Assembly (NCBI GenBank): GCA_048882485.1
Contig: JBHLRP010000015.1
Coordinates: 8,327-67,536 of the forward strand
Direction: 5' to 3'
Source of the DNA: Candidatus Thorarchaeota archaeon
GTDB taxonomy: Archaea; Asgardarchaeota; Thorarchaeia; Thorarchaeales; Thorarchaeaceae
Length of the DNA stretch: 59,210 nucleotides
A model generated the notes under the pieces. The model saw only the letters and a program-made list of their open reading frames with translations, was not told the DNA's origin and ran no database searches. The position numbers and the translations under genes are program-made. Below, piece after piece: positions 22,269 to 59,210 of this stretch; within the stretch, counting starts at the first letter, position 1; every line of letters starts with the position of its first letter.

Positions 22269-22392
22269 AGTTTTATCGCCCTTTAACTTGACTAGTTCTG
22301 GTGGAGCCTGCAGCAGCCAAGAGCTTCCCGTGCTCGGCAGGACACCGAAACTCGCAGTTTCATTGTCAAGCCCACATTCTTTGCTAGCAATC

Positions 22393-22412
22393 ATGACAAT
22401 AAATGTTGTCTT
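22393..22412. promoter_or_regulatory. Palindromic operator ATGACAA-N6-TTGTCTT upstream of the hdrA fusion operon
   Basis: Same arms and spacer length as 17628-17647, with one mismatch. Confidence 0.55.
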
Positions 22413-22559
22413 GTAAAGGATGCTTCTTATCAGGACATGTCATAAGTGAGACGAAGACGCAACGAGTATTGACGCGGTTCTTCCAAATCATGGTTTGAGA
22501 TCTTGTTCCAATTAGGGAGAGCGTGTTTCACTTGTCTTTTGATTATCTATAAGAATCGC

Positions 22560-22618
22560 AAAATGAAAGGGCGCTCAGCAGTGTGATAGGGCCAGTTCCC
22601 CAAATGCTCTACTCATAC
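22560..22618 (+). repeat. Dispersed repeat type A (hairpin with compensatory changes)
   Basis: Core + GTGTGATAGGGC...GCTCTACTCATAC. Confidence 0.85.
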
Positions 22619-23015
22619 TATATTCGGTCCGTGACTTATTTCAATCGTCACCAGAATTAGTATCGACCCTTATCTGATTCGCGGGCTCGATTTTCTGATA
22701 AGTCTGGAGTATATTTCAGGCCCGGATAATATTGGACTAGAAATGTGGTGGAAAACGATGGAATCACTGCTAAAATGACTCAGAATTTCACTTGTCCGGC
22801 AGAAAGACAAAGACGGTATATTGAAGATGCAGAGGATCATCCTTGATACGCCTAATATGAACAAATGCTCTCAGATGACTCTCCGCACATTGTTCGAGGT
22901 ATCTTTCGACCTGAATTTCACTTGTTGTTGTTAACAGATGCTGAATCATTTAGATAGCCCCTTATGCACGGCTCTAGACTCTAATGGCAATGCATGCTTC
23001 TTGGTGAGAGTGAAT

Positions 23016-25888: not shown

Positions 25889-25988
25889 ACAAAGGTGATC
25901 CATCCGCGGCTTCCGCTACGGATACCTTGTTAAATAGTGAAAGAAATCACAAGCAGAATAGACTCACTTCATATCAGAGGGTCAATAA

Positions 25989-41888: not shown

Positions 41889-41921
41889 ATATCGATTCTT
41901 ACATACACTATGGAAGAAATC

Positions 41922-41970
41922 AATGCAGAAAGGGTGCTCAGCAATGTGAGATGGGCATTTCCCCATTACT
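41922..41970 (+). repeat. Dispersed repeat type A, truncated
   Basis: GAAAGGGTGCTCAGCAATGTGAGATGGGCATTTCCCCATTACT. Confidence 0.88.
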
Positions 41971-42519
41971 GCCATGTCAGTATACATCATTCTACATAAG
42001 GGATTGTAGGAGTTGTATTCTGAGAGGAAGTGAACCATTGGTGACAAATGAAGGCAACCCGAGGTCCGACAGCGGCATCCAGCGAGGCTTGCCAACAGCG
42101 GGAGGGCAAGCATATGTCATCAGACGCTATTCTCTATATCTCAATCTGTAAGTCATTCTTACTCATCATCAGTCATTAGGATTCTTTACAGTCCGAAGGT
42201 GCCAGCCCTCACAGTGTCTACAGTGGTATGGCTCCATCATGCCAACCTTACGCATTGTTGCTGCCGCAATCCTAGCCCGTTCCTTATCAGGATAACGTAC
42301 CTTTCGTCTGCACGCCTCCTCTGTATTCTTACCCATGATTCTCTCATATCCTATTGGTCATCTGTTTGATGTATAGATTACCATTGCTAATAGACCGATT
42401 CCTCTTAGATGCCAACTGGATAATCATTGGCGAAGTTGGCGTTGAAGTCATTGTAAACACAATATAATGTATTGATATATCAAGAGGAACCTAATTATAT
42501 CTAGGAGGGCAGTGTTTGA

Positions 42520-43087
42520 ATAGGTCTGGCCTTGTATATCCTCCTGGGGTCATTCAGTCCCTTTGCAGTTGCCACAATAACTGCTCTAATGACTGTATGT
42601 GGCCCTATTGCACTGTTTCTTGCTTCGAGTCCAAGCGGAGAGTTCTACCAGATAGTTGCGATGCCATGGCAAATGGTCCAGAACAGACTCGTTCTGCTAG
42701 ATCCAATATTGGTTTCCAATTACTTTCCGCTTATTATTCCAAAGACTTGCCTTCGCCTACCAGATATGCCGATGTTATAGAGGAGAAACTACTCGCGCTA
42801 GGACTCTCGCTGTAGGTGTCTTAAGCGAGCTGTATATAGCAATAACATCCATCGCCGTGTTTCTGATCAGGCTGCAAGCCCCTCCATCCCGGTTCATTCA
42901 GCTTGCCTTGCCAATTCCTCTGCTTCTTATTTTTGGTGTAATATTCCTTGAACTCACTCCACCTCCTAGGCCGCCTGAAACATGGGACGAAGTGGTGAGT
43001 GGCCATATCTTCATCAGTCGTGCCTTCAATGCCTCACAGACCCACAACCTTGTCATCTGTTTTTTGAGGTGTAGTTGCTTCTTTTAA
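42520..43087 (+). pseudogene. Frameshifted multi-pass membrane protein gene
   Basis: Frame of 42532..42780 joins RLAFAYQICRCYRGETTRARTLAVGVLSE...PIPLLLIFG...PPPRPPETW if one A is removed at 42741-42743. In-frame TGA upstream. Confidence 0.55.
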
Positions 43088-43122
43088 GGCAGATAATACC
43101 AATGAATCATGGATGACATAAG

Positions 43123-43962
43123 ATGGCACAAAAAACAGATGGCATCCATCAGACAATCACAATTAGTATTTCTGTAATGAGAAACATCATTCTTATCCTC
43201 ATCATCTATCTGGCTATCACCCTAAGTCTTGAGATTCTAATTCCAGCAAACTGGCCTCAATTGACAGCAACCATGACAAGTTTTATCGGATATACACTGA
43301 ATGGTGGTTTGATAGTGCAAATTCCATTGAGGCTTGTGCCTGATCTACCTTGGTCATTCCAGCTTCTGGTTCTTTTTTCGGTCTTTGCCTTCATTGCTCT
43401 GCTAAACTCTCTGCTACTTGGATTCATCACGCAACATTCTCTCATTGAGGCCTCAGAATATTATGAAGCCCTCCCCTCTCATCACACACAAAGCAAAAGA
43501 AACGCTCTTCTTCATTTGATATCCTACAATTGGGGCTATCAACTGATAATGGGATTGGGATTGGCAATACCTGCTTATCTACTGGGCCAAGTAAATCAAT
43601 TGCTGCAGTTCATATTAATCGCGATTTGCATCTATCTCGGTATTCGATTGCTCCTCTGTCCCGTATATATAGTTGAAAGGGGGAACTCTATGTGGCAAGC
43701 TATAAGGCAGTCGTGGACATTGTCAAAGAAGTGGGTAGGGAATATTATTCTTCAGGCGGTTGTATTCATCGGGATAGGGGCAATTCTTGGAATAATGTTT
43801 TATTATCTCACCTACCTATTCCCTCCGTATCTGGGGGATTATCTATTTGACATGGTGTTTTCGCTATCCTTTCTCTATATAGGAGCATCTCTTTCCGTTC
43901 TTGGTGCAACAACCTACCGCAGACTTTCAATCACTCAGGAGGACCCATGGCTTCAAAGCTGA
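43123..43962 (+). CDS. Multi-pass membrane protein (YciC/glycerophosphodiesterase-membrane-domain-like)
   Basis: Hydrophobic helices with RLLL.P.YIVE.G....AI.QSW.L.K motif. Confidence 0.7.
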   Translation: MAQKTDGIHQTITISISVMRNIILILIIYLAITLSLEILIPANWPQLTATMTSFIGYTLNGGLIVQIPLRLVPDLPWSFQLLVLFSVFAFIALLNSLLLGFITQHSLIEASEYYEALPSHHTQSKRNALLHLISYNWGYQLIMGLGLAIPAYLLGQVNQLLQFILIAICIYLGIRLLLCPVYIVERGNSMWQAIRQSWTLSKKWVGNIILQAVVFIGIGAILGIMFYYLTYLFPPYLGDYLFDMVFSLSFLYIGASLSVLGATTYRRLSITQEDPWLQS

Positions 43963-43968
43963 GAAATT

Positions 43969-44607
43969 TCAAGCAGAAACATAAGCTATCGCGCCGACAT
44001 CTACAATGGTTTTTCCTGATCCTGTTGCACTATTAACTTTCGAGTTGCCATTCATCCATATTTTGAAGTATACTACCAAGTAGTATGTGTTCCCTTCAGC
44101 AACATAGCCTCCACTGTCAAATTCATAGTAGTTGTAGTGATGTTTGTGAGGAGTTGCAGATGACTCAGCGTTGAAAATTACTGATAGGACATGATCATCA
44201 TAGACTTTTACCCTATCTAGTTCATCCCATTCATCATCATATAGATAGTACCAAACCTCCCAAGACACTTCTCCACTTGGAAATCCGCCCCATATTTTGT
44301 AAGTTGATGTCCAATCTGCACCCATTTTTATATCATCTGAACCTGAAGGCGTAATTTCAACGCCAACATACATGTAGATTTCATCAGCGCCATCACCATA
44401 TGCATGAACTCCTATTGCTTTCATCTTTCCAGTGGACGATGAACAACTTACACTTGAATAGACTGTACTATCATAAGATGAGATATAGTCTTCACTTAGT
44501 GTTGTGAAATAACCCTGTATTGCATTCACAAATACAGGACTGGCAATTAAGATGCATACAGCGAGAAATAACACCATACGTCTATATTTAGCTGATACTT
44601 CAATCAC
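43969..44607 (-). CDS. Secreted hypothetical protein
   Basis: Signal-peptide-like LFLAVCILIASPVFVNA, then a Tyr/Ser/Gly-rich beta-type sequence. Start uncertain (44577-44712). Confidence 0.65.
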   Translation of the reverse strand: MIEVSAKYRRMVLFLAVCILIASPVFVNAIQGYFTTLSEDYISSYDSTVYSSVSCSSSTGKMKAIGVHAYGDGADEIYMYVGVEITPSGSDDIKMGADWTSTYKIWGGFPSGEVSWEVWYYLYDDEWDELDRVKVYDDHVLSVIFNAESSATPHKHHYNYYEFDSGGYVAEGNTYYLVVYFKIWMNGNSKVNSATGSGKTIVDVGAIAYVSA

Positions 44608-45531
44608 CCCCAACAAGAGGGCGCCATGACAGAACTGATGAGCAAGCGAACAGCTATCAAAATCAGTAACCCGGCTAGAATCCCTCTTTGTTTCATTTCT
44701 CTTTAACTCCAAGTTTCACTTGGCCAAGATAGAAACTCCGATACATCCCCAGCAGAATACATAATCGAATCTTTGATTTAAGGTATGTGCTTTTCTGAGG
44801 CATGGTAATGAATTCAAGGCCTAACCATATCTGGATATCTCTATTCCAAATGAGTGTGGTCAGAAAGAATGAATCATAGCTATCTAGAGCCAATATATGG
44901 TCTATGGGATGTATCGACCGATTTCTCCTCTCTGACCACGAAATGATATACTCTCATGCCTTCATATTGGTCTTATCACGGCTAGCTGAACCTCCAATAC
45001 TCTGAAAAATGCAACATGGAATGCAAGAAAAAACGATTATCGACCTTCGTAAACAATATGAGTTGCTGTATCGAGTCTACTACCAGAAAACTATGTCAAA
45101 TCTTCTTGCGTCTTCTTTGCATTTCGCCTAACATCTGTGAGAATCGTAGAGGTCGTGCCGCTCCTGCTGTCCTCAGATTGAAAGCCGAAGACTATCTCAG
45201 AAGCAGTATGATTCTTTAACTAAGTTGGCCCAAAGAGCTACGGGTTTGTACCAGTGAAGAATTGGTGCATGATACGTTGCCCTGCGAATAACAGTCCTTG
45301 TCCTCGCGGCCATCTCAACAAGAACCATAAGATATATTACGAATTACATGTTATATATTATCTGTTTCGTGGTTTTAAGCTAAGCGATACTGCGATACGC
45401 GTCACTGTACAGAAATCAACGGAAACTGAAGGCTCGGAAAGCCTTCTTTTGAGGTGAAATAAGAGATGGAAGGAAAACAAATGATGGGTAGGCTAGATGG
45501 GGCCGTCGTGGTTCAGGAGGGAAGATAACTG

Positions 45532-46317
45532 ATGAGAGTCAAAATCCTCATCACAACAGGGTTGGTTATTTGCCTTCTGAGCTCAATGCAAACCATTCCT
45601 GCGTTTGCTCATGGTGTAGAAGTGTGGTCGGACAATTTCGATGACGGCGATTATGATGGATGGACAGTGCATGCAGGAGAATTCGCTGGCCCTCTTACAT
45701 ATGTGCTACGTGCTGTGGCAACTGGCTGGAGTACTGCGAGCCATGATAGCGAAGTGGCTTGTGGACATTGGTATTTTGACCTTGAGGAGAATCAGACATC
45801 ACCTACGGATCAACACGTCATCTTCATTGCTCTGGATACTGATTCCGCAGCCATGGACGGATATTCGCTTTTCGTTGATATTGAAGCAACATCCTACATC
45901 AGACTGTGCAGGTGGGATGGTGGAACTCCAACAACATTAGATGAGATTGAACGACCTGCAGGAACTTGGGGTTGGTATGAGTATAATATCACTAGAGATA
46001 ATACGGGTGCGTTCGAAGTAAGACGAGACCAAACATCAATCTTGACCGCAATTGATTCCACTTATGCCACGTCCGCATATTTCGTATACTACGCACAGGA
46101 AGGTAGGGCAATTGACAACATCAGCGTATGGAGCTGTAATGCAACTGCGACAATTACAACTACAAATACGACTACTACAACCACAAATACAACCACGGGT
46201 ACAACGGAGCCAGCGCCTCCACCACCTCCCCCCATTCCGCCCGGGATGACACTGGCTCTGGTAGTGGGTGTTGTTGTGATAGTGATTATCTTGGTCTTTA
46301 TTTCAAGGCGCAAATAG
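45532..46317 (+). CDS. Cell-surface protein with Thr/Pro-rich stalk and C-terminal TM anchor
   Basis: Signal peptide, WSDNFDDGDYDGW start of a lectin-like domain, TTTNTTTTTTNTTT/PPPPPP linker, TM followed by RRK. Confidence 0.8.
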   Translation: MRVKILITTGLVICLLSSMQTIPAFAHGVEVWSDNFDDGDYDGWTVHAGEFAGPLTYVLRAVATGWSTASHDSEVACGHWYFDLEENQTSPTDQHVIFIALDTDSAAMDGYSLFVDIEATSYIRLCRWDGGTPTTLDEIERPAGTWGWYEYNITRDNTGAFEVRRDQTSILTAIDSTYATSAYFVYYAQEGRAIDNISVWSCNATATITTTNTTTTTTNTTTGTTEPAPPPPPPIPPGMTLALVVGVVVIVIILVFISRRK

Positions 46318-46335
46318 GACCATTTCAAATTCAAG

Positions 46336-46376
46336 GCGTGGAGAGCTCTAGAAGCTCTCTCGCTCCCTTTATTTCT
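46336..46376 (+). terminator. Hairpin terminator
   Basis: GAGAGCT-CTAGA-AGCTCTC stem followed by a T-rich tract just after the stop at 46317. Confidence 0.5.
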
Positions 46377-46684
46377 ATAACATTGAGGCATGTCTTGCCA
46401 GAAGTTCCATTTCATGCAATTGTGTTCCTCTGAAACTCATTCAAATGCCAGATTCTCTTATTAGGCAGGAAACGGGCTCTGGTGCGATGCAGAATAATCT
46501 TTCAGGCTAGCCTTATCCGTCATACTTCAGATCCGCAACTACGTGAAATATATGGACATGAGCCCCACCTTGAATGTTAGTAGCTAGCTAAAAGGAACAT
46601 AATTCTTTAGCTGGATTAGCCCAATGAGATACGGAATCGTACTTGCTGGGAATTGGTCTCATAGTACACGAAGCAAGCTCTATC

Positions 46685-47818
46685 CTATCTGAGGAGGCCT
46701 CTCCATCTGGAATCAGGTTGCCAGACCCATTCGCCAATCCGGTGTTGGCCACTTGCGCTTATCACGAAAACGAGATGTCTTCTACCCTTTTCCCAACTGC
46801 CTAGGTTGGCATAATTGGTGTTTCTCTCCTCTTTATGGGTATGACCTAGTACTCTATGCACCTGCGCTCCCATTGTCTTGTAACCCGAACTGTCTAAGGC
46901 TCGCTCTAGCACCTGCTCGAAGACTTGATGGGTTTTTTGAGGATCAAGACCAGTGAGATTTGCTCTGTCACGTGCCTGCTTTATTGTATCAAGCTCGATT
47001 AGCTTTGTCCCTCTTCGTTGCTGGGGGGACTTCTTAAAGTAGCGAATGATTCTACGACGTTTCCTCCAAGGTATTGTGTGCATCAAGACTTCTACTTGTT
47101 CGTCATAGCTCTTTGCAGAAAGTTTAGACAAATCTGGTCCTTTCCTAGATACCCAGACTATAGATATTATAGTAGCAGCCGCAGATAATATCGCCCAGGC
47201 ATATTGAGCAAAATACATGAGCAGGAATGCGATTGCTGCTGTTAAAACTGGCACAAGACCCTTTTGATCCCACAATATTCTAGATATCCAGCCACGCAAA
47301 TCTCCCTGGCTGCACAGATACTTACATACTCCATTATATATCTCTCCAGCCTCACCCTCTATGAGCTGATGACCATGCAAAAAGCCGAATCCCTTTGGTG
47401 GCTTTGAAGGCGTTGTAAGCGTCAGCCAATCGACATCTTTGCATGAGGGACTCTTGAAGGAAAAGGCACTCAATGACGGATAGTCCTTTTGAAGCTCCTC
47501 AATGACAAAATCATGGTTTCCTACAACGTAATGCAGTTCGCCTATTGCTCCCTTTGATTTGAGCTCTGAGAGCTGCTCAAGCGTTTTCTTCTCCTTTTTC
47601 AGGAGCCTGTCATTGTCCTTTGTCCAACAATCGAGAAAGTCACCCATTATCACGAAGTGTTCGACTTCGGATTCCTCTAGAATCTGGTCAATGAAAGCCC
47701 TAAAGGAGTCACTATCGCTCTTGCCATATCCAAGATGCACATCTGTTACGGCCAGAGCATAAAACTTCCCCGGTCTAATTGGTTCTATTCGGTTTTCCTC
47801 ATCCATCTTTCCCACCAC
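46685..47818 (-). CDS. Calcineurin-like metallophosphoesterase (LpxH-like) with internal TM hairpin
   Basis: DVHLG, GDFLD.W, GNHD, HGH, GHTH, N.GSW motifs. Confidence 0.85.
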   Translation of the reverse strand: MVGKMDEENRIEPIRPGKFYALAVTDVHLGYGKSDSDSFRAFIDQILEESEVEHFVIMGDFLDCWTKDNDRLLKKEKKTLEQLSELKSKGAIGELHYVVGNHDFVIEELQKDYPSLSAFSFKSPSCKDVDWLTLTTPSKPPKGFGFLHGHQLIEGEAGEIYNGVCKYLCSQGDLRGWISRILWDQKGLVPVLTAAIAFLLMYFAQYAWAILSAAATIISIVWVSRKGPDLSKLSAKSYDEQVEVLMHTIPWRKRRRIIRYFKKSPQQRRGTKLIELDTIKQARDRANLTGLDPQKTHQVFEQVLERALDSSGYKTMGAQVHRVLGHTHKEERNTNYANLGSWEKGRRHLVFVISASGQHRIGEWVWQPDSRWRGLLR

Positions 47819-47839
47819 GATGCTTTTGACAAAGACCTC

Positions 47840-48589
47840 TCATAGTACTTCTTTGAAACTGACTCCGACGAGATGACAGCATGTCAGAATTGCCCAGGTT
47901 CGCAATGCCCAAGTGAACATCATGAACCACGCCATTGGTTCAAGATAGAAGTACCACCACAGACCTTCCAATCCGCCCAGAAGCTCCATCGCACCACCAA
48001 TAGCAACACTGCTTATCAGGATAGAGAGATTCCATCCTCCTGAACGTGATTGAGTGTAGTACAAGCTAATGAGCCCAAGTGCCACGTAGGTAGCTGCAAG
48101 TAGTGGACTAAATAGACTCAGGTAGCCCTGGGCATAAGCAACGCCTACAATCATTATGATGGCAAGAATTGCTGGAAAGGTACGCATGAAAACGACAAGA
48201 CTGGTCCCGTGCCATTTTCCTTCCATCTTATCCAGCTGTTTCAAAACAGTTGTTCGGCTCAGATATTCTGAAACAGTAAGTATCACTAGAATGAACAAGG
48301 GCCATCCCATGACCGTAAGAAGTGACGGAGTGTTAAGGTCGAAGTAGATCAATATGCCACTTGATGTGTGAGCAAATTCATCAAGAAGAGCAATAATGAT
48401 TGAGAACCCGACCAAGAACATCAGGTCGCGGGTCTTCATTCTATTCGCTCTCCAGAGTCCGATGAATGATGCACCTGCCAGTCCAATAAGGAAGAAGATT
48501 GGCGACAGCGTATAATACTCGAGAATCAGAAACGATGCGGCAATGGCTGTTATGACCCAGCCAACTATGAATAGGTTCTTAGGGTTCAT
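47840..48589 (-). CDS. Multi-pass membrane protein
   Basis: About 8 TM; two internal DE/E...G...Y...P....W repeats. Confidence 0.7.
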   Translation of the reverse strand: MNPKNLFIVGWVITAIAASFLILEYYTLSPIFFLIGLAGASFIGLWRANRMKTRDLMFLVGFSIIIALLDEFAHTSSGILIYFDLNTPSLLTVMGWPLFILVILTVSEYLSRTTVLKQLDKMEGKWHGTSLVVFMRTFPAILAIIMIVGVAYAQGYLSLFSPLLAATYVALGLISLYYTQSRSGGWNLSILISSVAIGGAMELLGGLEGLWWYFYLEPMAWFMMFTWALRTWAILTCCHLVGVSFKEVL

Positions 48590-48696
48590 TACAAGATTTA
48601 ATCATCTAATTAGTAGGATTTATTTTCTTCGAAAATATATGATATTCTTAATAGCTTTAGAGAAACTAAAGCGATGCGCAATAGTAGGGGATAGAT

Positions 48697-50202
48697 TTGA
48701 GCTTCATACTGGACCCGCCGGCTCTGTTCCTGCTGGGTATTCTGACATATTATGTAGCGAAGAGGTGGAATCTAAAGGAGACCTTCACCGTCCTGATTCT
48801 TGCTGGTTGGGTGTTCATCTGTTTCATGGGTGGAAGCACTCTGCTATATATGGACGTCATAGACTGGCCAATACCCCCCACTGAAGGTCCTATCTGGATG
48901 TTCCATACGAATTATACAGGAATAACAAAGGCAAGCGTTCCTGTTTGGTTTGCCCTTTTCAACCTCTTTCTGTATCCAGTATGGATTATTCTGGGATATT
49001 CGCTATCACAGCGTCGGGACGAGGGATTCTTTCTCAGAAGCACTGCAACATTCAATGATGTGAAAAGTAGCAGGACTATTACTGACACCCGGACTTCTGT
49101 CAAGAGAGGTGACAATCCTCGAGAACTTGTCCGAGAGGCCATAGCAGAAATCGGAGGAATTGAAGAGTATGTCCAATCTGGAAACAAGGTACTTATCAAA
49201 CCAAACATTTGTGGCGGAAACCCTGAGATTCCGGGAACATTCACTGACGTGAGAATCGTCGATGAACTAGTGAGAATGATTCGTGAACAGGGTGCGGAAT
49301 CAATCGTCGCTGATTCTGACATGATTTGGACAAGATTCCATCCTGTTGCTGAAGCACAGGGATGGTTTCAGTGGGCAAAAGATGCTGAAGTGCCATTCAT
49401 CAATCTTGGTGATACTGAGTGGGTTCGGTTCGATTTTGGGAAGGGTAGCGCAATCGGAAAGGTTCCAGTTTCAAGGGAACTCGTGGATGCAGATGTGATC
49501 ATATCGGTTCCAACAATGAAGACACACCTATTGACAAACATCACTGTTGCAATGAAGAATATGTATGGAACGTTCCCTGAAGAGAATAAGGCGAAGTATC
49601 ACCGCTTTGGAATAGAGCGTGTTGTATACGAAGTGTGCAACGCATTCACTCCAAACCTTACAATCATTGACGGAACGGTTGGAGGCGAGGGTGCAGGTCC
49701 CCTCTCGAGCTCCCCTGTCAATTCTAAGACGATCATCGCCTCAAATGACATTGTTGCAGCGGATGCGATAGCGTGCAGGATTATGGGCTATGATCCAATG
49801 GAAGTGGCACACATCAGGCTTGCACATGGGAAACTTGGCAATGCCGAAGTGGACTTCACACCAGACAAGCTCTCTCCAAAGCACCCAAAGGATGGAGCGT
49901 GGAGTAAGCCGGAACCACTAGTAACGCTATTCTATGAAACACTGTGCGAACTAGTCCTTCTCTTGCCGAGTATGCAGATATTATTCGATCTGGCCGCTGA
50001 TTTCGTGTTGTATGATTTAGCAACTCTTCCCGTTTTCAAGAATACGACACCCATGATGCTCAACATTATGAACGCTGTTCTGGGTGCGCTATTCAGGTCA
50101 GGATATCGCGGTATCAAATGGACGCAGAAGGATCTGGAGGAGTTCAAGAAGCGAGTCCTTCCTCCTCAAGGTCTTCAGAAATCAGATTATAAGATTCACT
50201 AG
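48697..50202 (+). CDS. DUF362 family Fe-S protein with N-terminal membrane domain
   Basis: VLIKPN, ADVIISVP.MKTH....T.AMKNMYG, P.LTIIDG...EG.GP, D.VA.DA....MG.DP..V.HI. Confidence 0.85.
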   Translation: MSFILDPPALFLLGILTYYVAKRWNLKETFTVLILAGWVFICFMGGSTLLYMDVIDWPIPPTEGPIWMFHTNYTGITKASVPVWFALFNLFLYPVWIILGYSLSQRRDEGFFLRSTATFNDVKSSRTITDTRTSVKRGDNPRELVREAIAEIGGIEEYVQSGNKVLIKPNICGGNPEIPGTFTDVRIVDELVRMIREQGAESIVADSDMIWTRFHPVAEAQGWFQWAKDAEVPFINLGDTEWVRFDFGKGSAIGKVPVSRELVDADVIISVPTMKTHLLTNITVAMKNMYGTFPEENKAKYHRFGIERVVYEVCNAFTPNLTIIDGTVGGEGAGPLSSSPVNSKTIIASNDIVAADAIACRIMGYDPMEVAHIRLAHGKLGNAEVDFTPDKLSPKHPKDGAWSKPEPLVTLFYETLCELVLLLPSMQILFDLAADFVLYDLATLPVFKNTTPMMLNIMNAVLGALFRSGYRGIKWTQKDLEEFKKRVLPPQGLQKSDYKIH

Positions 50203-50208
50203 ATTCAG

Positions 50209-51291
50209 GTGTGGTGTCTGGTGGGAGGACATAATCACTCGAATGAAAGCAAAGGGGTATCATCACCAATGGAGATGATTCTCAGCAAATCTCCCCTTGC
50301 CGCTCATTGGACTTGTGTAATCATCGGTGTTTTGATATTTGTGGCCTATCCCATACTGGCAACAATTGGAGCTGAATCGGATATTGCAAGCGTCAGCATT
50401 TATGGTTCAGTCTATGCATTCAGCATCCCCCTCTTGATGTATGGAGAGTACTGGATGGGCTTAAACATAGCTCGGTCACTGAGAAAATTATGTAATGCAT
50501 TTGATATGGATCGTAACCTTGAAGGGGAGGTCTATCAAGAGATTCGAAACATTCCAAAAAGGCTGGGATATGGCATTATTTTGTCAGCGGTTCTAATGTT
50601 ACCTCCTCTTTTTCCGTATCCAGCATATTCGTATTTACCCCTTTTAGTCTACAGCTTTGCAATTGCAGCAATTGCTCGATTCATTATCGGCGAGATGATT
50701 CCTGGAGTCTATTCTCTGAATAAATGCGCGAAGAAGATAGGCTATGAACTTCGTGACCAAATCGATGTCATTGATGATAGGAAGCTAGACGCCCTAAAGG
50801 ACTTGGCAGGGTGGGGGCTTCAGATGTCTACTTTCGGAGGATTTGTCGCGATTGCGGCACTTGTGGGAGTCATTTATGATCCATCGCGAAGCGCCATCCT
50901 TCCACAGAGTGTGGCCGCAGGAAGTGTAATCGTCATAGCTTCATTCTTCATTGTATGGGCATTCATATCTCCAACTATAGAAATCCATATGATGATGCGC
51001 CAAGCCAAGCAAGAACTGCGACAGGAAATATCTGAGAGATACAATCACCTTTTTCAAGAACTGAGGAATCTACCCAGAAATAAGTCGCTCTTCAAGGATC
51101 AGGTTCGCATAAGGACTATTTCTGACTTGATGGATGCAATCGATAAAATGGAGATAAAAGCCAAAGAGGCTCCGGAATGGCCCTTTGATGTAAGACAAGT
51201 GCAAAAGGCAATGGGAACTTTCATTGCTCCAATAATCATCTTCTTGCTGCAGAACATTCCTGAGATAATTTCATTCCTCGGATTCAGCTAG
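50209..51291 (+). CDS. Multi-pass membrane protein
   Basis: Several TM helices; F..P...IH..M..AK and PEWPFD motifs. Alternative start ATG 50269. Confidence 0.7.
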   Translation: MWCLVGGHNHSNESKGVSSPMEMILSKSPLAAHWTCVIIGVLIFVAYPILATIGAESDIASVSIYGSVYAFSIPLLMYGEYWMGLNIARSLRKLCNAFDMDRNLEGEVYQEIRNIPKRLGYGIILSAVLMLPPLFPYPAYSYLPLLVYSFAIAAIARFIIGEMIPGVYSLNKCAKKIGYELRDQIDVIDDRKLDALKDLAGWGLQMSTFGGFVAIAALVGVIYDPSRSAILPQSVAAGSVIVIASFFIVWAFISPTIEIHMMMRQAKQELRQEISERYNHLFQELRNLPRNKSLFKDQVRIRTISDLMDAIDKMEIKAKEAPEWPFDVRQVQKAMGTFIAPIIIFLLQNIPEIISFLGFS

Positions 51292-51884
51292 TTCAGAGCA
51301 AAGTCCCATGAGGCCCGCGAAAAGATTGCTGGTTTTCGAATTGGGACTCCCATTCCGTGAAAATGCTTGCCATAAGCTTAGACCAATTATCCAAGGAATT
51401 CCCCCTCTAAACTGCAGTCAAGTCATCTATGCCTTGATTCCGTTGTCGTGTCTAACAGTGTGCAAGAGGGGACTGACTGGTAATTTTTCCAATCCTACTG
51501 AACTCCATAATGAACAAGAAATATTTGGACCAATTCCAAGAGTAGCAGGATGATCGATTGAAGATAACCTGATACATTGAAATTAATACTCTCCACGCAA
51601 GGACTGTTTCCTCTTGGTCACTCGATTCATTAACCGCTTCTATTGCCAGTGCAAGGACTGGCTTGTTGAGCTGATGGTCCGCAAAAGCGTCATAGATTTA
51701 ATCGAAAACTTAAATTCAAAGTTGATATATTAAGTTTCAATTGCAGGATTCGAGTGTCCGGTTTTCATGCATATTATTATGGAATTCGTCATGCATTAAA
51801 ACGCTGTGACGAGTGCATATCAAGTAGAATGGCAAAATTGGAAATTGATTGAGGCTGAACAATTAACTGGTTTCGAAAAACCAA

Positions 51885-52625
51885 TTGGGAAAGAAGGTGA
51901 TAGAAATATCGGAAGAGGTAGAGGAAGAGGACCTTCCTTCTAGTTCCGAAGGAATACCAGATGATGCTTGGGCCCTTTTCTTCAGAGGTATCGCAGCTCG
52001 CAAAAAGAAAGACAATCCTGATGCCATTGAGTTCTACCAAAAAGCTATCGAGATATATCCGAAGTTCCATCAGGCTTGGAATAATCTGGGCTATGCATTC
52101 ATGGATGAAGGGCGAATGGACAAGGCGATTGAAGCTTTTGAAGAAGCGGTTGCAATTAAACCGGATTATCACAAAGCTCTCCATAGTCTAAGCGAAGCTT
52201 ACTGGAAAAAGGGAACCATTGATGACCTCGATAGAGGAATGAAGTATTTAGTTAAGGCGCTGGAAATAAAGCCGAGCTATACATTGGCGAAAAAGGACCT
52301 TGAGAAGTTTCAAGCTAGGTTGGAGAAAGCGAGAGAAATAGAAGAACAACATACTGAAGTCACCAAGATGATTAGAAGTCTTAGACTAAGAATAAAGAAT
52401 CTGCCCGGAAATGTTGATACAGATGGTTTTCTCACAGATCTTGGCAGACTCCAAGGGGCGTATACAACAGAAATTGAGAGATACTTAGGTGATATCAAAG
52501 AAGAAGCGGACAAGATGCATGACAAAACATGGTTTCAACGGAACAAGCAGGGAATCATAGTTGTTATAACGTCGCTTCTTTCAGGTCTCTTCACATTAAT
52601 TGCTGCTATTATCTCTAAGATCTAG
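51885..52625 (+). CDS. TPR-repeat protein with C-terminal TM anchor
   Basis: AIEFYQKAIEIYP, AWNNLGYA, A.EAFEEAVAIKPDY, KALEIKPSY; hydrophobic tail. Confidence 0.85.
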   Translation: MGKKVIEISEEVEEEDLPSSSEGIPDDAWALFFRGIAARKKKDNPDAIEFYQKAIEIYPKFHQAWNNLGYAFMDEGRMDKAIEAFEEAVAIKPDYHKALHSLSEAYWKKGTIDDLDRGMKYLVKALEIKPSYTLAKKDLEKFQARLEKAREIEEQHTEVTKMIRSLRLRIKNLPGNVDTDGFLTDLGRLQGAYTTEIERYLGDIKEEADKMHDKTWFQRNKQGIIVVITSLLSGLFTLIAAIISKI

Positions 52626-52672
52626 CCTATCCGGACGGAGCCTGTTTCAGGAGATGGAATATAGTAGCAGCA

Positions 52673-53737
52673 TCATTCATTATCTCCCAAATCTAAATCT
52701 ACGAATACTGGACGATGGTCACTGGGCATCCTCTCACGTTCATATTGTTTGCTATCGTCACATTCACTATTGAACTCTTCATGAGCGATTCCTGCATTGG
52801 TTATTATGCTGGGTAATGAAAGCGCAGGAGAAACAAGAATGTGATCTAATAATAGCGGTCGGTCATCAATCCCATCAATGAAATCATCAAAGATTGCAGT
52901 ATAGCGCTTCTCCAAGGGAACTCTTTCAAGGAAACTGTGCATGAACAATAGTCGCGGGTAGTAAGTGCTTCCCAACAGAATATCTGTAACATTGTGCGAT
53001 AAATAGACTCTTTCGAAGTAGTCGTGTCCAGGTCCGTCATTCAAATCACCTGTGACCACTGTAAGTGCAAGAGGGTTCTCCTTTATAATATCATTCAGGT
53101 ACCTACGAGCACGCATTGCTTCGGAAGCTATTCTCCGTCGATTCTTCATTGCTTTCTCAATGAACTCGGGTCGATCATTTTCACTTTCCCACATTTCTTT
53201 CTGTCCATGAACATATTTCGATTTCGTATGAAGCGACATTATCCGTAGCGTTTTTCCCGAACATGTCCCTTCCACAACAACAGGACTTCTTGTGAAGCCG
53301 TACTCAATTGGTTTCAATCCGCCATCAATATCTGATTTCCAGCTTTTGTGGAGGGCATCCGTTATGGAATCACGCGGTATTACGCAGTTCTTAAATTCTC
53401 CATCTTTCTTTGCAAGAATATAGACCTTCTGAGACCCCCCCTCTAGTTTTGGAGAATTATCGACGTAGCCCTTTCCAGCTCCAAATACATCGTACACGTT
53501 GTTGAGGTATTTCTTCACAAACAAAGACATCTCCCTGTGGTCGCTAGGACCTTCTTGAACAGTCAAAATGTCAGGGGCTATTTTCGAAATAACTGATGCA
53601 ACCCGTTTGCACAAACTATCCACATCATCAATCTGACCCTTTCCTCCTTGGGGTTCATACTTGGATCTTAATGCAACTAGACCGTTGCCAACGAACCAAT
53701 TGTTCATCCATTCAATATTCCAATTCATGATTCTCAT
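52673..53737 (-). CDS. Endonuclease/exonuclease/phosphatase (EEP) family protein
   Basis: MRIMNWNIE, PDIL.VQE, H.KSK, GDLND, LDHILVS, SDHRPV. Confidence 0.92.
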   Translation of the reverse strand: MRIMNWNIEWMNNWFVGNGLVALRSKYEPQGGKGQIDDVDSLCKRVASVISKIAPDILTVQEGPSDHREMSLFVKKYLNNVYDVFGAGKGYVDNSPKLEGGSQKVYILAKKDGEFKNCVIPRDSITDALHKSWKSDIDGGLKPIEYGFTRSPVVVEGTCSGKTLRIMSLHTKSKYVHGQKEMWESENDRPEFIEKAMKNRRRIASEAMRARRYLNDIIKENPLALTVVTGDLNDGPGHDYFERVYLSHNVTDILLGSTYYPRLLFMHSFLERVPLEKRYTAIFDDFIDGIDDRPLLLDHILVSPALSLPSIITNAGIAHEEFNSECDDSKQYERERMPSDHRPVFVDLDLGDNE

Positions 53738-54081
53738 TAAATTTCACCTTCCAAATCACATGAGATGAAACGCACCAAGATAATCTGAGTAAATCCGACT
53801 CTTGTTCTTCTTGCATTCGGTAGTATTTCTTAATTTGCCTTCTAGATTTCTTCCTGTACATATCTTGCGTCTATCAGGAGGACTTCGAGTATTTGCTGTC
53901 CGCCCCTTCAAGGGAAATAATAGATGAAGCCTGTTGAGAGATAGTGGCATGTGAGCTTTGATTTAGATTCCTCATTCTATTGAAGAGAATCAGATTTCGC
54001 ATCTCACTTCATCCATTTCTTACGAAACCGTTAAAACAAACCATCTGTATAGTTTCTTTTTGTTTCTATAATCTATGAATA

Positions 54082-54702
54082 ATGAATTGGAGAAGAGGAG
54101 GAGATTGTATTCCGCTAAGCAAGAGTGATAAAATCGACATACTCGATTTCGCACGAATGAAGTGGGCACACGCAGAAAGTCTCATTCCTGGATACATGAG
54201 AGCTAAGAATAGTGCAATAAGAATTGGCCAAGCTATGAGGTTCCTCACCTTCGTGGCAGGTGTAGTAACTGCCATTAGTACTGCATTCCCGGGTGAAACA
54301 AGTTCTTTTACTGCTATCGCAGGAGTGACAACTGGAATTGTTGCCGCAGCCCAGACTGTATACACACCTGAGAAAGCAGAAAAGAGATTCTACAGCATTG
54401 AGCGAAGACTCTGTGGCCATCAGGACAAATTGGTTCTTGTCTGTAGTGAACTTGAGGGATTCGCCTCAAAGCGGGATGGATTAGATCGAGTAAAAGATGT
54501 GAGTAAGGAGATTGACGAGGTAATCCGAGACGAACCAGTAATTGTGACTCCAGAAGACAAAAGTGAGGCAGACCTTTCTTCGAAGAGAATTCGTTGTGCT
54601 ACCAAACTTAAAAGCCTTCGAGAGGAGATGCTTCCCGTTGGGGAGGAACCCGAACAACCAGAGGAGGAGGCAGAAGGGATTGAGGTTGCTTTTGCATTCT
54701 AA
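54082..54702 (+). CDS. SLATT-like two-TM effector protein
   Basis: H...Y...N helix, two TM helices (FLTFVAGVVTAIST; IAGVTTGIVAAAQT), then Y.PE....RFY...RL helical tail typical of SLATT domains. Confidence 0.6.
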   Translation: MNWRRGGDCIPLSKSDKIDILDFARMKWAHAESLIPGYMRAKNSAIRIGQAMRFLTFVAGVVTAISTAFPGETSSFTAIAGVTTGIVAAAQTVYTPEKAEKRFYSIERRLCGHQDKLVLVCSELEGFASKRDGLDRVKDVSKEIDEVIRDEPVIVTPEDKSEADLSSKRIRCATKLKSLREEMLPVGEEPEQPEEEAEGIEVAFAF

Positions 54703-54720
54703 TGGGAGTAGTGATGGATT

Positions 54721-55065
54721 ATGCTGCGAGTAAAACACGAGCTTGTTAAGGACAAAGATGGAAGAATCATCTATCGAGTCTACACACCTGGAGGACGAAG
54801 ACATTACAACATTCGGTTATTCATAACCGGAGAGCCCCCTGAAGGCCTTACAATTACTAGAGTACAATATCAGCTACATCCGACGTTCAAGAAACAGATT
54901 CGGGAAGGAAACAGTGCGAAGGAATGGGAGGAGTACATCTGGACTTGGGGTATGTTCACTCTCACTGCCAAGATAGAATTCTCAGATGGAAGTGCAAAAG
55001 AAATCAGGTACAGACTTGAGTACGATTTGCCAAAAGATGATGGAGAGAACTACGTTCAGCAGTAG
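54721..55065 (+). CDS. Prokaryotic YEATS (pYEATS) domain protein
   Basis: YNIRLFI...ITRVQYQLHPTF..IR......IWTWGMF.L.AKI.F.DG matches the YEATS V.F.LHPSF...GWG.F signature. Confidence 0.8.
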   Translation: MLRVKHELVKDKDGRIIYRVYTPGGRRHYNIRLFITGEPPEGLTITRVQYQLHPTFKKQIREGNSAKEWEEYIWTWGMFTLTAKIEFSDGSAKEIRYRLEYDLPKDDGENYVQQ

Positions 55066-55473
55066 GAATTGTCGATAACGAAAGCACCCGCGATTCTATA
55101 GATTAGAGTAGGGAATTGCTCAGACAGATAGATCGGGTTTTCTCCTGATGCATTGCTACTGGCAAGCAGAAACTATTAGCATCAGCCTCCCAAGACATAA
55201 TGTACAACCAAGCGCATCCACCCGAATTCCGATTGGATTCTTGATTACAGAAGAGATTTCAAAGCCGAAATTGTCATCACCAAGATACTCTGCCCGCTGG
55301 TTCATTAGAGGAGTGTCTTGCTAATGCCTTGATTGGGTAAGGGTTTTGATGTGTCATGTCATTCTCAACCACATTTTTGTACTCATTGCTCGAAGTAGGG
55401 CTTCCGCTTGAATCCAAATCATATGGAGGGAGAAATGGAACCTCAAGAGCTTCGCGTATGCAAACTGAGAATA

Positions 55474-56601
55474 CTACTTCAATGGCCCCGGTCTAAAGTT
55501 GACTCGAGGAAGCGCGACATTGTTTCTGAATTGTGCCAAATCTGGAAGCTCAAGTCCTTCTGTAGAATAGTCTAGACTGATGCCGAATTCCTCACAGACA
55601 CTATCGATTGTCTTCATTTCCTCCTTTGCTGATTTTCTTATGCCATCAACAGAATAGAGTCCTGGCTCGCTGAATGTGTCTTTGAAGAAAGCGATGACCT
55701 TGCCTTTTGCATCCTTGGGACTTAAAGCGGTTATTAGCCTGTTCAATTCAGAATGGAACTGCTCCAGCCAAGCGAATGACATCGCTTTATACACTAGCAT
55801 CTCTAGAAGGATTTTGTTATTCGTGTGAAATTCAAGTAATTGCGAATCAGTTTCTGATCTTTCCAGTCGTTCTTCAGATTTCTTGGCATAATCATAACAA
55901 AAGGCAGCATAGCCACACAGCCCTCTCTGAAGAGAAACGTGCCCCATATATGTCAGAATTAGCGAAAATCTATTGTCAAAGTAGTAAGCAATCTTCGAAA
56001 CGTAATGAAGGTGATCATCGGAGTAATCATCGTCTCTTGACGTTGCATGATTCTCTGCTTCCAATAGAAATTCCTCTATTGCATATGCAAGGGATGTCAT
56101 ACAAGCAATAGAGTCAAAATCAAGACTGCCATCAGCATCGAGCAAAAGGTCTTCAGAACTCTCCAGAACATGAATGCCCATTAGAGCCATATCACTAAAA
56201 TAGTCAAAAAGCTGGATTCCTAGTTTATCGATATAATTGGTTCGTATTCCAAAATTCCTACTCACAACTGGATATTCTATCTTGAGATCTCGTAGAAGCA
56301 GCATACTCTGGCAATACTCCTCGAAGAACCGCTTTATCTCATCCATATTCTCCGCGTATTCCACGTCGACTACAAGGTTCCTAAGCTGAATGAGATGCTG
56401 AATGCCATCCGTTGCCGCTTTTACATAAGTCTTCAATGTCGAATTATCCTCAGCCATCATCTGCAGTTGATTTATTGTTTCATCTCGAAACTTCGATTCA
56501 TCTCTATCATAGAGCTTCACTTGTCGGTCGAAGCGTTGAACAAAGAAGCTCGCAAGACTACCCAAAGCTCGTCCTAGCATAACCATTTCAGGAAGTGACA
56601 T
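55474..56601 (-). CDS. Hypothetical alpha-helical protein
   Basis: Long ORF (open to 56658), helical composition. No family recognised. Confidence 0.7.
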   Translation of the reverse strand: MSLPEMVMLGRALGSLASFFVQRFDRQVKLYDRDESKFRDETINQLQMMAEDNSTLKTYVKAATDGIQHLIQLRNLVVDVEYAENMDEIKRFFEEYCQSMLLLRDLKIEYPVVSRNFGIRTNYIDKLGIQLFDYFSDMALMGIHVLESSEDLLLDADGSLDFDSIACMTSLAYAIEEFLLEAENHATSRDDDYSDDHLHYVSKIAYYFDNRFSLILTYMGHVSLQRGLCGYAAFCYDYAKKSEERLERSETDSQLLEFHTNNKILLEMLVYKAMSFAWLEQFHSELNRLITALSPKDAKGKVIAFFKDTFSEPGLYSVDGIRKSAKEEMKTIDSVCEEFGISLDYSTEGLELPDLAQFRNNVALPRVNFRPGPLK

Positions 56602-56730
56602 ATTACTACCCCAATTGCTCAACCTAGAAAACGGCGTGTTCGGTGTTGCATCTCTCAATAACCAGTCTTTTTTCGATTTATATAAACTCCGCTAAGCCTG
56701 ATTGAAATGACCTTTTACTTCATTATGAAG

Positions 56731-56826
56731 ACTGCTTTCAATCAAGCATCAATATTCACAATTGCATCGAATACAGCTAGGATGTAAACCAACTGAAACC
56801 TGTAAAAATGTCAGATGTCAAAATGA
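56731..56826 (+). repeat. Diverged duplicate of 11832-11927 (3' end of membrane-protein gene plus spacer up to the repeat core)
   Basis: 96-bp ungapped alignment with 12 mismatches counted by eye, all transitions. Confidence 0.92.
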
Positions 56827-56956
56827 GAATACGCTCAGTGGCATGAGCAAGGGTAAGACCAACTTGGTGTTAGGCAACCTAACCGATTGCACTGCGCTCC
56901 CCATCTTAAGCCTAGACCTCTCTGCCCGAAGACAGAACAAGCTGTCGGGATACGAA
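56820..56956 (+). repeat. Dispersed repeat type B
   Basis: AAAATGAGAATACGCTCAGTGGCATGAGCAAGGGTAAGACCAA...TTAGGCAACCT...AAGCC...CTCTCT...CAAGCTGT. Confidence 0.7.
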
Positions 56957-57179
56957 TTCTATCAGATGCTGCCGGAAATATAGGCACACCCTCCCGTGTT
57001 CTAGCACGCTCGTGAATGGTAGGGAATTTCTAATTGCAATCATCGAGAAGTCCGAAATAAAAGATCGCACTGAATCAATTTTGGCTCCAGGTATACCGAA
57101 CCCTATAAAGGCAAGTAAGTTCTATATATCCGACCTAATAAGTAGAATATCGATTAAATACTGTGATAGAGGGTTGTGA

Positions 57180-57395
57180 ATGGTCGATAAACCAGACACT
57201 CAAACAGTTAATATCGTGGTAAATGGGAACGATGATTTGCTTGTTGAGGAGTTAAAGAGCAAATTGGCGAAGTATGTAATTACCGTTGAAACATATCATG
57301 ATTCATCGGTTGATTCTCCTGTTCTTGTAACATCGAAAGGGATATTTCAATCTAAAACAGGCCTTGATTGTTTCCTAAGGATTGTGTCAGAGTAA
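57180..57395 (+). CDS. Small glutaredoxin-fold-like protein lacking CxxC
   Basis: PVLVTSKGIFQS..GL..F resembles the Grx cis-Pro/GG region. GAGGG RBS; coupled to the next gene. Confidence 0.5.
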   Translation: MVDKPDTQTVNIVVNGNDDLLVEELKSKLAKYVITVETYHDSSVDSPVLVTSKGIFQSKTGLDCFLRIVSE

Positions 57396-57431
57396 GATTA
57401 TTCCCTGTTTTGCTATTGCAGAGGGGTTGCT

Positions 57432-58970
57432 ATGGCAGAAACACGCTTGTATCTGCTTACAGGTCAAACGGGCGTAGAGCATGGTGATGTTGGTAATGCT
57501 GTATGCAAGGCGGCTGAAGAGGCAAGAAAGGAAGAACCAAATGTACCCACCTTGAGCTGGTTTGACATTAAAAAGGGATTTGAGGAGGCAGGATATCCAT
57601 CTTCAGCGGTTCCGGCGCTTTGGGAAAATCCAAGCCCGGCAAAGAAGAGAGGAGCATGGATTGCGGCGTATAATGCGATATTAGATGAAATTCATGAGCG
57701 CTCTTTGGATATAGCTCTTCTATCCATGCACATGTTATGGTATCGTGGTTACAATTTCTTTTGTCCTGTGGATTTCCCTACCGTAGAGAATGGAAGAATA
57801 AAACCCATTGGAATTGTGACCCAAATAGATGATCTTTACGATATATGGACAAGAATAAGGGAAAGAAAAGACAGACCGGGATCCTTCAATATTGATGTGG
57901 ATTTCTCTTTAAGTGAATTGGGAATTTGGAGAGGACTTGAGGTGCTGATGTCTGAGAAATTAGCAGAGTTTCTCCATGACCAGAGAAGAGGATTTCATTA
58001 TGTTTGGGCTGTAAAACACCCACCTGAAATGCTATGGAAACTAGTTTCAGATCCAAGTCAGTTAACTGTATATTCTGCTTTTCCTATTTCAAGAACACGT
58101 AACTGTGAGGACGCAGTTGATGCAATTAATGAGTTTAGGCAGAAACTCTATGATGAGTTCATTGTTTTTGATCCTTTGACTATTGATGAATACCCCATCA
58201 GAGCCAAACTTGTGGAATATTGGGTAGAGCATATTAGAAATGATTTGAAGACAACCTGCGATATCAATTCTGATAATCTTGAGATCGATTTTCATCCCAT
58301 AGGCAAAAAGTGTACAATTCATCATAAGGAGTTTGACATTCAATCTGGATGTATAAGATCAAATAAAGCAAAGATCAAGCTCGGAGATGATTGTGTCTTC
58401 ACTCTTCCTGAAGAAATCAGTTTACCTAAGAGGGGAGAGATGTGTTTCGATAGGTCACTTCGTTGGGCGCTCTACCCATCGAGTTCTGAATTCTCATACA
58501 AGTCCGCTGTAGATGGGGAGAATGAACCAGTTGTTGTACCGTTCTGGGAGGTTGATGAGGCAACCAAGCAAATTGTCAGTCAAATACGTGTTCGAGATTT
58601 CCAATTAATTGAAAGAAGTGATGCGATAATCGCATTTAGACCAAGCTTTCAGAAAACGAAAATCTCTGATGGAGTAACAAAAGAAATCACATTTGCCAAA
58701 GAACTGATACAATGGATGCTCTATAAGTTGGAATGGGCAGTGATATGGGATAAAGAGGATGGAGAAATAGCAACATCAGCCGCAGTCTTGGGCTCCGAAG
58801 CTTCATCGCTTTATGAACAAATACCATGCTATTCAACTGTGGATGAGTGCATTAAAGCTTTCAAAGAAATACAGCAACGAAAGAAGGATTTCTTTAGAGA
58901 TTCTACAGATCCCGGAAAGCTTAGAGATAAGCTGATCGAGTGGTACAAAGCCAGAATAGCAATAAGCTGA
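57432..58970 (+). CDS. P-loop nucleotide-kinase-like domain fused to a nucleoside 2-deoxyribosyltransferase-like (NDT/Rcl) domain
   Basis: N-terminal LLTGQTGV...H....R; C-terminal VYSAFPIS, FDP..IDE, RDFQLIERSDAIIAF, SDGVTKEI.FA (NDT SxG..xE motif). Confidence 0.65.
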   Translation: MAETRLYLLTGQTGVEHGDVGNAVCKAAEEARKEEPNVPTLSWFDIKKGFEEAGYPSSAVPALWENPSPAKKRGAWIAAYNAILDEIHERSLDIALLSMHMLWYRGYNFFCPVDFPTVENGRIKPIGIVTQIDDLYDIWTRIRERKDRPGSFNIDVDFSLSELGIWRGLEVLMSEKLAEFLHDQRRGFHYVWAVKHPPEMLWKLVSDPSQLTVYSAFPISRTRNCEDAVDAINEFRQKLYDEFIVFDPLTIDEYPIRAKLVEYWVEHIRNDLKTTCDINSDNLEIDFHPIGKKCTIHHKEFDIQSGCIRSNKAKIKLGDDCVFTLPEEISLPKRGEMCFDRSLRWALYPSSSEFSYKSAVDGENEPVVVPFWEVDEATKQIVSQIRVRDFQLIERSDAIIAFRPSFQKTKISDGVTKEITFAKELIQWMLYKLEWAVIWDKEDGEIATSAAVLGSEASSLYEQIPCYSTVDECIKAFKEIQQRKKDFFRDSTDPGKLRDKLIEWYKARIAIS

Positions 58971-59125
58971 TTGAATGAAGCCGATTATATCATGACCCTG
59001 TAATAATGCATCTAGCTGAATATTTGCCCGAACTGAAAGTAGACATTGATGAACTCGTTCGGCACGAAAGAACGCACGAAAGGTTCCTCGAATACAGAAA
59101 CAGCTGACCAATTATGAAAATATGG

Positions 59126-59210
59126 AAAAATGAAAAGGGTGCTCAGCAGCATGAGCCAGGGCAAGTGCCAATGGCGTTAGGGAATCTAGTTCCTTTCACA
59201 ACCCTATCCC
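59126..59210 (+). repeat. Dispersed repeat type B (runs to window end)
   Basis: AAAAATGAAAAGGGTGCTCAGCAGCATGAGCCAGGGCAAGTGCCAATGGCGTTAGGGAATCTA; tail resembles the 56820 copy. Confidence 0.8.

Follow-up and report, generated by a model that had tools for sequence, protein, structure and literature searches.

The same gene end stands in front of two different types of repeat in this Thorarchaeota genome, and the repeats are copies of the 16S rRNA 3' trailer. The whole is probably best explained by an array of gene modules lying between 16S-trailer copies, in which one P0001-family cassette end has decayed and modules have been re-joined by homology within the 'head', a short sequence at one end of each copy. 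The decayed gene end, in the following termed the relic, is real and informative, and many independent junctions speak for exchange in the core; a role of the repeat as an active mobilising site is not established. The window, i.e. the whole 59,210-nt stretch analysed, corresponds to G000:C15:8327-67536, where G000 is a MAG of 3.96 Mb in 157 contigs, and its right end is the contig end.

A gene end joined to two types of tail

The intact gene, P0001 (11262-11897, forward strand), encodes a hydrophobic protein of 211 amino acids with no Pfam match. It is followed on the same strand by a spacer (11898-11920) and a degenerate head (11921-11943, AAAATGAAAAAGTTGCACAACAG), and then by a type A tail (11944-12009) that is orthologous to the tail of an 'empty' site in the relative G005 (G005:C21, array coordinate 3839-3923). 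A repeat search of the window (family D7) aligned 11832-11930 with 56731-56829 over 99 nt, ungapped and with 87% identity, in agreement with the ungapped copy of about 88% described in a first-pass annotation. When the 11.9-kb and 56.7-kb copies were used as BLAST queries against the 3.96-Mb assembly, each had the other as its sole match (E 5e-28). In frame, the 56.7-kb copy reads KTAFNQASIFTIASNTARM-stop-TN-stop and its 11.9-kb counterpart ATAFNQASIFTIASNMAKMQTN-stop. What remains of the gene, according to the BLAST and repeat matches, are its last 22 codons (56731-56796, forward strand), which encode the C-terminal 22 residues conserved in the family, with a premature TAA, derived from CAA, at 56785-56787 and the former stop codon TGA at 56794-56796. 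Left of 56731 there is no similarity to the rest of the gene, nor is any other part of it present on the contig; the premature stop and the loss of the remaining gene are thus both as first described.

Downstream, the relic continues on the forward strand into the 3' spacer of the cassette (56797-56819), which is conserved among P0001-family cassettes, with similar sequence at 11898-11920 and on the SMTZ1 contig L031. With AAAATGA from 56820 there begins a degenerate head or 'core' (56820-56840, AAAATGAGAATACGCTCAGTG), the distal end of a 16S-trailer copy in reverse complement, scoring 5.8 bits (E about 1) against the head profile. The type B tail that follows (56841-56946) is 84% identical over 106 nt to G012_C14:7038-7142 and lacks roughly the last 25-28 nt at the 16S end. 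Within the relic pair the flanks are 85% identical and head positions 1-10 (AAAATGARAA) agree in nine of ten cases, followed by none of the next 14 in ungapped comparison; with one gap, 9 of 17 positions after AAAATGARAA can be matched by eye, which is generic head similarity. Past the core, type A sequence follows in the 11.9-kb copy and type B sequence in the 56.8-kb copy, so that the junction of one left flank with two tail types, the central point of the first-pass annotation, stands.

Going by the source names given, P0001 is a Thorarchaeota-only membrane-protein family, some of the names reading Promethearchaeota (Asgard): wherever a source is named among its 32 homologue clusters, it is a Thorarchaeota or Promethearchaeota (Asgard) MAG. 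The closest homologues (P0003-P0005) are 75-84% identical. In a 23-member alignment the conserved parts include the last 22 residues (L.TAFNQASIF.IA.N..KMQTN), and the residues of the relic agree with the family pattern; in G011, a genome of the same genus, and on an SMTZ1 metagenome contig, a spacer and head of this kind come after full-length members. Because of this C-terminal conservation and these full-length members elsewhere, the 99 nt are confirmed to be gene-derived, i.e. to be the decayed end of a second small-membrane-protein cassette. With 3 synonymous and 4 non-synonymous substitutions in 66 nt, the relic has too few changes to tell whether it diverged as a working gene. Its 131 nt gave a single 35-nt match in 85 other genomes of the family, to the G011 orthologue, and an intact donor, i.e. 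a P0001 paralogue with a type B tail, was not found, one metagenome scan leading to four loci. A second P0001-family relic is located on G000 contig C124 (1299-1800 in array orientation), where a head and type A tail precede the 100 initial codons of a paralogue (57% identical), and an unrelated ArsR-like gene comes next.

One may ask whether assembly created the junction as a chimera, or whether sequences of different strains were joined via the repeat. The genome is, after all, a 157-contig MAG in which repeats break contigs, as at the window end and at 56863/56882 in a contig of sequencing run X4. However, the 99-nt pair is just 87% identical, a divergence too high for collapse, and contigs of four runs from two studies (X1-X4) cross both 56731 and the relic-head-tail junction with zero differences, which gives support at the level of contigs where the first-pass annotation had asked for reads spanning both loci. 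Logan contigs of 9.4-16 kb from X1, X2 and X3, which may be source samples, cross 55900-59163 with 0 differences, and a 13.8-kb Logan contig from X4, a sample not flagged as a possible source, covers 55900-56863, again with 0 differences. Since these independently built contigs cross the junction without a difference, misassembly at this point is very unlikely, and a chimera or strain mix is scarcely credible.

The break of the X4 contig lies within the type B tail and coincides with a drop in mean depth from 15.5 to 9.8, a weak hint of population variation. At the contig end, the terminal type B trailer copy (59128-59210, forward strand) reaches 2.6-6.4x the depth of its flank in each of the four runs; four or more further left flanks split off at 59127-59136, within the first 8 nt of the head. 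Together with the X4 break, these flanks and depths hint at several array variants in the community.

Truncation of the relic gene

To its left, the relic adjoins a 14.8-kb block of accessory genes (41971-56730) in which a head-profile search found no repeat; on its left the block meets a type A tail that is cut at about +46, on its right the truncated gene. When 41900-59210 was compared with G005, G009, G004, G011 and G002, nothing but the repeats matched. The nearest gene (55474-56658, reverse strand), an orphan of 394 amino acids with no Pfam match, starts 72 nt from the relic, and because no homologue of it turned up in 85 family genomes, there is no counterpart with which to compare the relic's left boundary. 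How the gene was truncated can be inferred along two lines. A single illegitimate deletion or replacement would be the simplest reading: it would have removed the rest of the type A tail, intervening cassettes and the 5' nine-tenths of a P0001 paralogue, which presumably had its type B tail before truncation, and would have put the 14.8-kb repeat-free block beside what was left. Alternatively, the 99 nt could be a tract left by repair or conversion, when a break in the 56.8-kb head was mended from a P0001-type cassette and about 99 nt were copied leftwards into an unrelated locus. Such a tract would suit the abrupt onset of homology 72 nt from the start of an unrelated gene, the lack of any other part of the gene on the contig and the breaks near the head implied by other events. 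Yet, its 13% divergence from the resident gene would require another allele as donor or an old event, and a one-sided tract with no homology at its left end would need an illegitimate join anyway, whereas the 5' relic of another paralogue on C124 demonstrates that plain truncation does occur in these arrays. We therefore regard a repair tract as improbable and keep to deletion or replacement as the simpler reading.

The repeat is a copy of the 16S rRNA 3' trailer

The array 'repeat' is the reverse complement of the 16S rRNA 3' trailer. In G011, the 16S 3' end in reverse complement (AGGAGGTGATCC) follows directly upon the last repeat of a syntenic array, and copies running into the reverse complement of the 16S end (GGATCACCTCCT) are found in G011, G005, G016, G018, G064 and G072. 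Read in the rRNA sense, the unit proceeds from 16S via the tail to UGCUGAGCACCCUUUCAUUUU. The head or 'core' is the 21-nt distal end of the trailer, consisting of the base of the pre-16S processing stem and an oligo-T, and is the one sequence common to all trailer types compared. Leader and trailer of G011 cofold at -116.6 kcal/mol with a long intermolecular helix. Trailers of each type (A, B and C) form duplexes with the 16S leader, the z values, each against 30 mononucleotide shuffles, lying between -3.4 and -9.6 (-9.6 for a true type A, -6.9 for a true type B, -7.4, -5.4, -4.4 for the 11.9-kb copy and -3.4 for the 56.8-kb copy), the two decayed copies of the relic pair being the weakest. 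Rfam (gathering threshold) and ARAGORN searches of the whole window gave no match.

Types A and B represent alternative trailers: next to the 16S gene, type A is found in G011, G005 and G016, and type B in G012 and G007, which belong to the same genus as G000, and in G018 from another genus. Since each type is 16S-adjacent in different genomes, the mixture of trailer types in one array points to DNA from foreign lineages with different trailers. A 16S gene is absent from the G000 assembly; that the G000 array adjoins its own 16S gene is what we infer from the relatives and from the contig ending in a repeat copy.

Some copies extend into the 16S gene itself. In the window, a 40-nt copy of the 16S rRNA 3' terminus (25893-25932, reverse strand; 97.5% identical to G011 16S) is joined to the trailer copy at 25811, and 19-40 nt of this terminus also occur in trailer copies of G011, G005, G000:C124, G007, G012 and G001. 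Six of eight such copies start no more than 4 nt from one 16S position (GTCGTAA^CAAGG, about 40 nt from the 3' end), and the real 16S genes of G072, G007 and G012 carry a 28-29-nt insertion at that very position, with the usual GATCACCTCCT end of 16S being displaced too in G007 and G012. The shared start position and the insertions suggest that the 16S gene is recurrently cut here or has an intron site.

Junctions between modules across arrays

The comparison covered 31 array pieces, taken from 17 genomes and metagenome contigs, with 128 heads in total, all of them co-oriented within their own contig. Thirteen of the 16 left-flank families were scored as having at least two unrelated tails, a count that becomes 12 of 16 after dropping one false call, in which two type B tails were offset by an indel; seen from the other side, 14 of 15 right-flank families have unrelated left flanks. 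The richest family is that of the P0001 cassettes, whose four members carry four different tails. In most pairs similarity ends right after GCTCAGCA(ATG), in the relic pair after AAAATGARAA; the apparent break position within the head varies between events. Cassettes that G000 has in common with G011, G005 and G009 are found there in a different order. Models in which a cassette travels with a fixed left tail or a fixed right tail were rejected, because shared cassettes differ in both neighbouring tails.

At the head, copies start at position 0-7. The 16S-proximal end is ragged, with 0-127 nt lost or 19-40 nt of 16S included, as far as alignment ends, which depend on divergence, allow this to be read. 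About 14 of the 128 copies consist of the head only, and junctions of this kind can be shared between genomes (11180 and L033:2654). Compared with their flanks, heads are somewhat better conserved (89.5% versus 83%, Fisher p 0.004), which fits a site under selection; a terminator role would give the same. Head decay follows no gradient with distance from the contig end. A near-palindrome is present in the head (TGCTCAGCA), and mapped breaks lie on both sides of it, as a staggered-cut enzyme could leave them.

Breakpoints at other loci, which the first-pass annotation had proposed to check, therefore coincide with the core in 12 of 16 left-flank families and also at the empty site of G005. Its idea that DNA to the left of the core moves with it and that exchange occurs in or near the core holds in so far as gene end, spacer and core start form a unit that is found on different tails, with the break inside the core; it does not extend to some rearrangement junctions, which are not at heads. 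Nor is the relic the best evidence for such exchange, as had been proposed, the cross-genome comparisons being stronger.

An empty site in G005 and the 10.2-kb segment

Over shared blocks, G005 is 94-96% identical to G000. In G005, a block X (window 1-1675) is followed without interruption by head, tail A and CdhA, whereas G000 has X, a head (1652-1675), 10.2 kb of further DNA, a second head (11921-11943), tail A and CdhA. This 10.2-kb segment (1676-11920) consists of block f, which is located elsewhere in the G005 array, then the head at 11180 and then the P0001 cassette. At its left junction lies a second copy of the same degenerate head (1652-1675, forward strand, AAAATGAAAAAGAGTGGTCAACAG), both flanking heads having the odd form AAAATGAAAAAG...CAACAG. 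An intermediate state, X followed by head and P0001, is seen in contig L033. The 11.9-kb head is a hybrid, whose left side matches P0001 cassettes and which from about position 7 on matches the resident site of G005. The 11.9-kb copy is thus, as judged by these alignments, the right-hand junction of a dated rearrangement. Several other differences between G000 and G005 are not head-to-head.

The gene content of the moved DNA is mixed. The 10.2-kb segment includes ordinary-looking genes (a transporter, HTH regulators), and most of it lies beside the 16S gene in G005. A 7.1-kb block of core energy-metabolism genes (Mtd / Mvh-like / HdrA-MvhD, 15611-22709) behaves as a cassette, too: in G000 it lies between one decayed and one intact head, in G009 between two heads; G005 lacks it at the equivalent position, where the joint retains no head, and in G011 its neighbour is a P0001 homologue.

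Exchange by short homology or by a dedicated system

Recurrent breakpoints at the head are an observation, and the question is what produces them. In the explanation we favour, accessory-gene modules would sit between co-oriented spare copies of the 16S trailer, each comprising one strand of the pre-16S processing stem and the oligo-T, and arrays would be re-joined within the 21-nt head, which would have placed the same gene-end module on type A at 11.9 kb and on type B at 56.8 kb. Re-joining would take place in the head because the latter, as the base of the processing stem, is the only sequence common to all trailer types. Exchange may operate via such short conserved islands, probably aided by the long 16S gene as an anchor, i.e. 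as homology-facilitated illegitimate recombination; repair of breaks near the 16S end is an alternative candidate. Several features might be read as those of a displacement array, namely the 16S anchor in relatives, the ragged 16S-proximal ends and the relics at 56731 and on C124. Short-homology or anchor-assisted recombination is thus favoured over an integron-type enzyme, since 16S-proximal ends are ragged, the 16S terminus can be included, some junctions are not at heads, and neither a recombinase nor self-folding of the repeat was found. Against this homology-driven reading, homologous recombination would have to make do with a mere 21 nt, although a 10-kb segment lies exactly between two heads, and an excess of head-only junctions is not predicted by the homology-facilitated illegitimate recombination model; the better conservation of heads and the near-palindrome with breaks on either side also count against it.

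Alternatively, the head could be the crossover site of a dedicated site-specific system, using neither a tyrosine nor a serine recombinase, that moves cassette plus head in the manner of an integron attC. The strict co-orientation of 128 heads in 31 array pieces, the head-only junctions, the head-flanked 10.2-kb segment at a site empty in G005, the slightly better conservation of heads than of flanks and the near-palindrome, which is read directly from the sequence, all speak for such a site. So does a TnpB-like gene inside the G012 and G018 arrays, where it is part of a conserved three-gene block, and the system might be linked to TnpB-like or Cas1-like genes in the arrays of relatives. However, no TnpB-like gene is present in the window or its contig, the three TnpB-type domain matches of G000 being on C50, C58 and C99; a tyrosine or serine recombinase is lacking in G000; the repeats do not self-fold; their other boundary is ragged, and among the junctions that differ between G000 and G005 several are not head-to-head; and the apparent break position varies within the head. 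Taking these points together, we consider a dedicated site rather unlikely.

The searches behind these statements were as follows. PF00589 and PF00239 (tyrosine and serine recombinase) gave no match in the assemblies of G000, G005 and G011; in G004, G012 and G018 no recombinase was found in or next to the arrays, PF00589 matches being distant or on other contigs; and a Pfam scan of 20 window proteins revealed no recombinase, transposase or homing endonuclease. PF00589 was present in 14 of 14 control genomes, and G000, G005 and G011, all of the same genus, are 87-91% complete; in these three, the archaeal XerA-type dimer-resolution enzyme may be missing or very divergent. On both strands, types A and B and the 11.9-kb copy fold no better than shuffled sequences (z +1.07 to -0.48).

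The three-gene block just mentioned occurs in 16S-linked arrays of two genera (L019 3749-12202 in G018:C9; L016 9388-17724 in G012:C2) and encodes a protein of 1,700 amino acids without Pfam domains, a 580-amino-acid TnpB-like protein with a Cas12f1-like TNB domain at residues 379-454 and an SDH-type ClpP-like protease.

In its most far-reaching form, the notion of a dedicated site would make the 21-nt head the crossover site of an integrase-free Asgard gene-capture system, which moves cassette plus head, perhaps as circles, into or between 16S-trailer copies; a nuclease or an unrecognised recombinase could be the driver, and the relic and the head-flanked 10.2-kb segment could be its footprints. 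This, too, we hold to be a tentative idea with the odds against it. The first-pass annotation had concluded that the repeat mobilises genes, with strand exchange in or near the core; that the repeat itself does so at a dedicated site is not established, since homology-driven exchange at a conserved core, i.e. the mechanism preferred here, would give the same pattern.

Relation to known systems

Integron-like arrays are an obvious comparison, and clusters of attC sites without an integrase (CALINs) have been reported in Archaea (Ghaly et al. 2022, PMC9668308). As in integron arrays, short co-oriented sites lie between modules of one to few accessory genes, gene and 3' site travel together, the order is shuffled among relatives, and junctions fall into a short conserved core. 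In contrast to integrons, there is no IntI here, the site, a copy of the 16S trailer, lacks both the self-pairing of an attC and a GTTRRRY-type core, one end of the site is ragged, and large housekeeping blocks (CdhA, Mtd-Mvh-HdrA) also lie between sites. Shuffled co-oriented sites with junctions in the core are thus found here, an integrase and a self-folding attC are not. The absence of an integrase alone would be no bar to a CALIN, because a CALIN lacks one by definition.

Tandem accretion at tRNA or tmRNA islands likewise involves insertion beside a stable-RNA gene and reiterated copies of its 3' region between blocks, and an Asgard precedent for the 3' side of 16S as an integration spot is provided by HeimM2 and HeimV2, whose insertion point immediately follows the one 16S gene that Ca. 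Heimdallarchaeum has (Wu et al. 2022, PMC8813620). Unlike accreted islands, the units described here have neither an integrase nor a homing endonuclease (among the 20 window proteins scanned), there are about 20 copies in 59 kb, and the modules were later re-assorted at the distal end of the trailer. For Rhs loci and the T6SS effector-immunity arrays of Vibrio cholerae, homology-facilitated illegitimate recombination that leaves orphaned gene ends has been proposed (Kirchberger et al. 2017, PMC5361080). The present arrays share with these a conserved anchor at one end, from which older modules are displaced one after another, orphaned 3' relics and the dispensability of a dedicated recombinase; they differ in that the anchor is an rRNA gene with its processing stem rather than a protein-coding 5' region, that exchange points cluster in a 21-nt island and that the mechanism is without demonstration in archaea. 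A hotspot described for ANME-1 (PMC13385816) proved unrelated. In the literature that could be searched, we found no published description of this type of array.

Significance for Thorarchaeota

If our reading holds, Thorarchaeota gather and reshuffle accessory genes behind their single 16S rRNA gene, using an integron-like platform that is built from the rRNA processing-stem trailer and operates without an integrase. To this picture the relic adds that one cassette family has come to lie on at least four trailers, that the exchange point can be narrowed to about ten nucleotides, and that trailer types can serve as labels of foreign donors within one array. At the practical level, there is a warning that highly variable DNA is hidden at the 16S-linked contig ends of such MAGs. 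Beyond that, gene flow in the archaeal group closest to eukaryotes could be studied at a concrete, testable site, the head.
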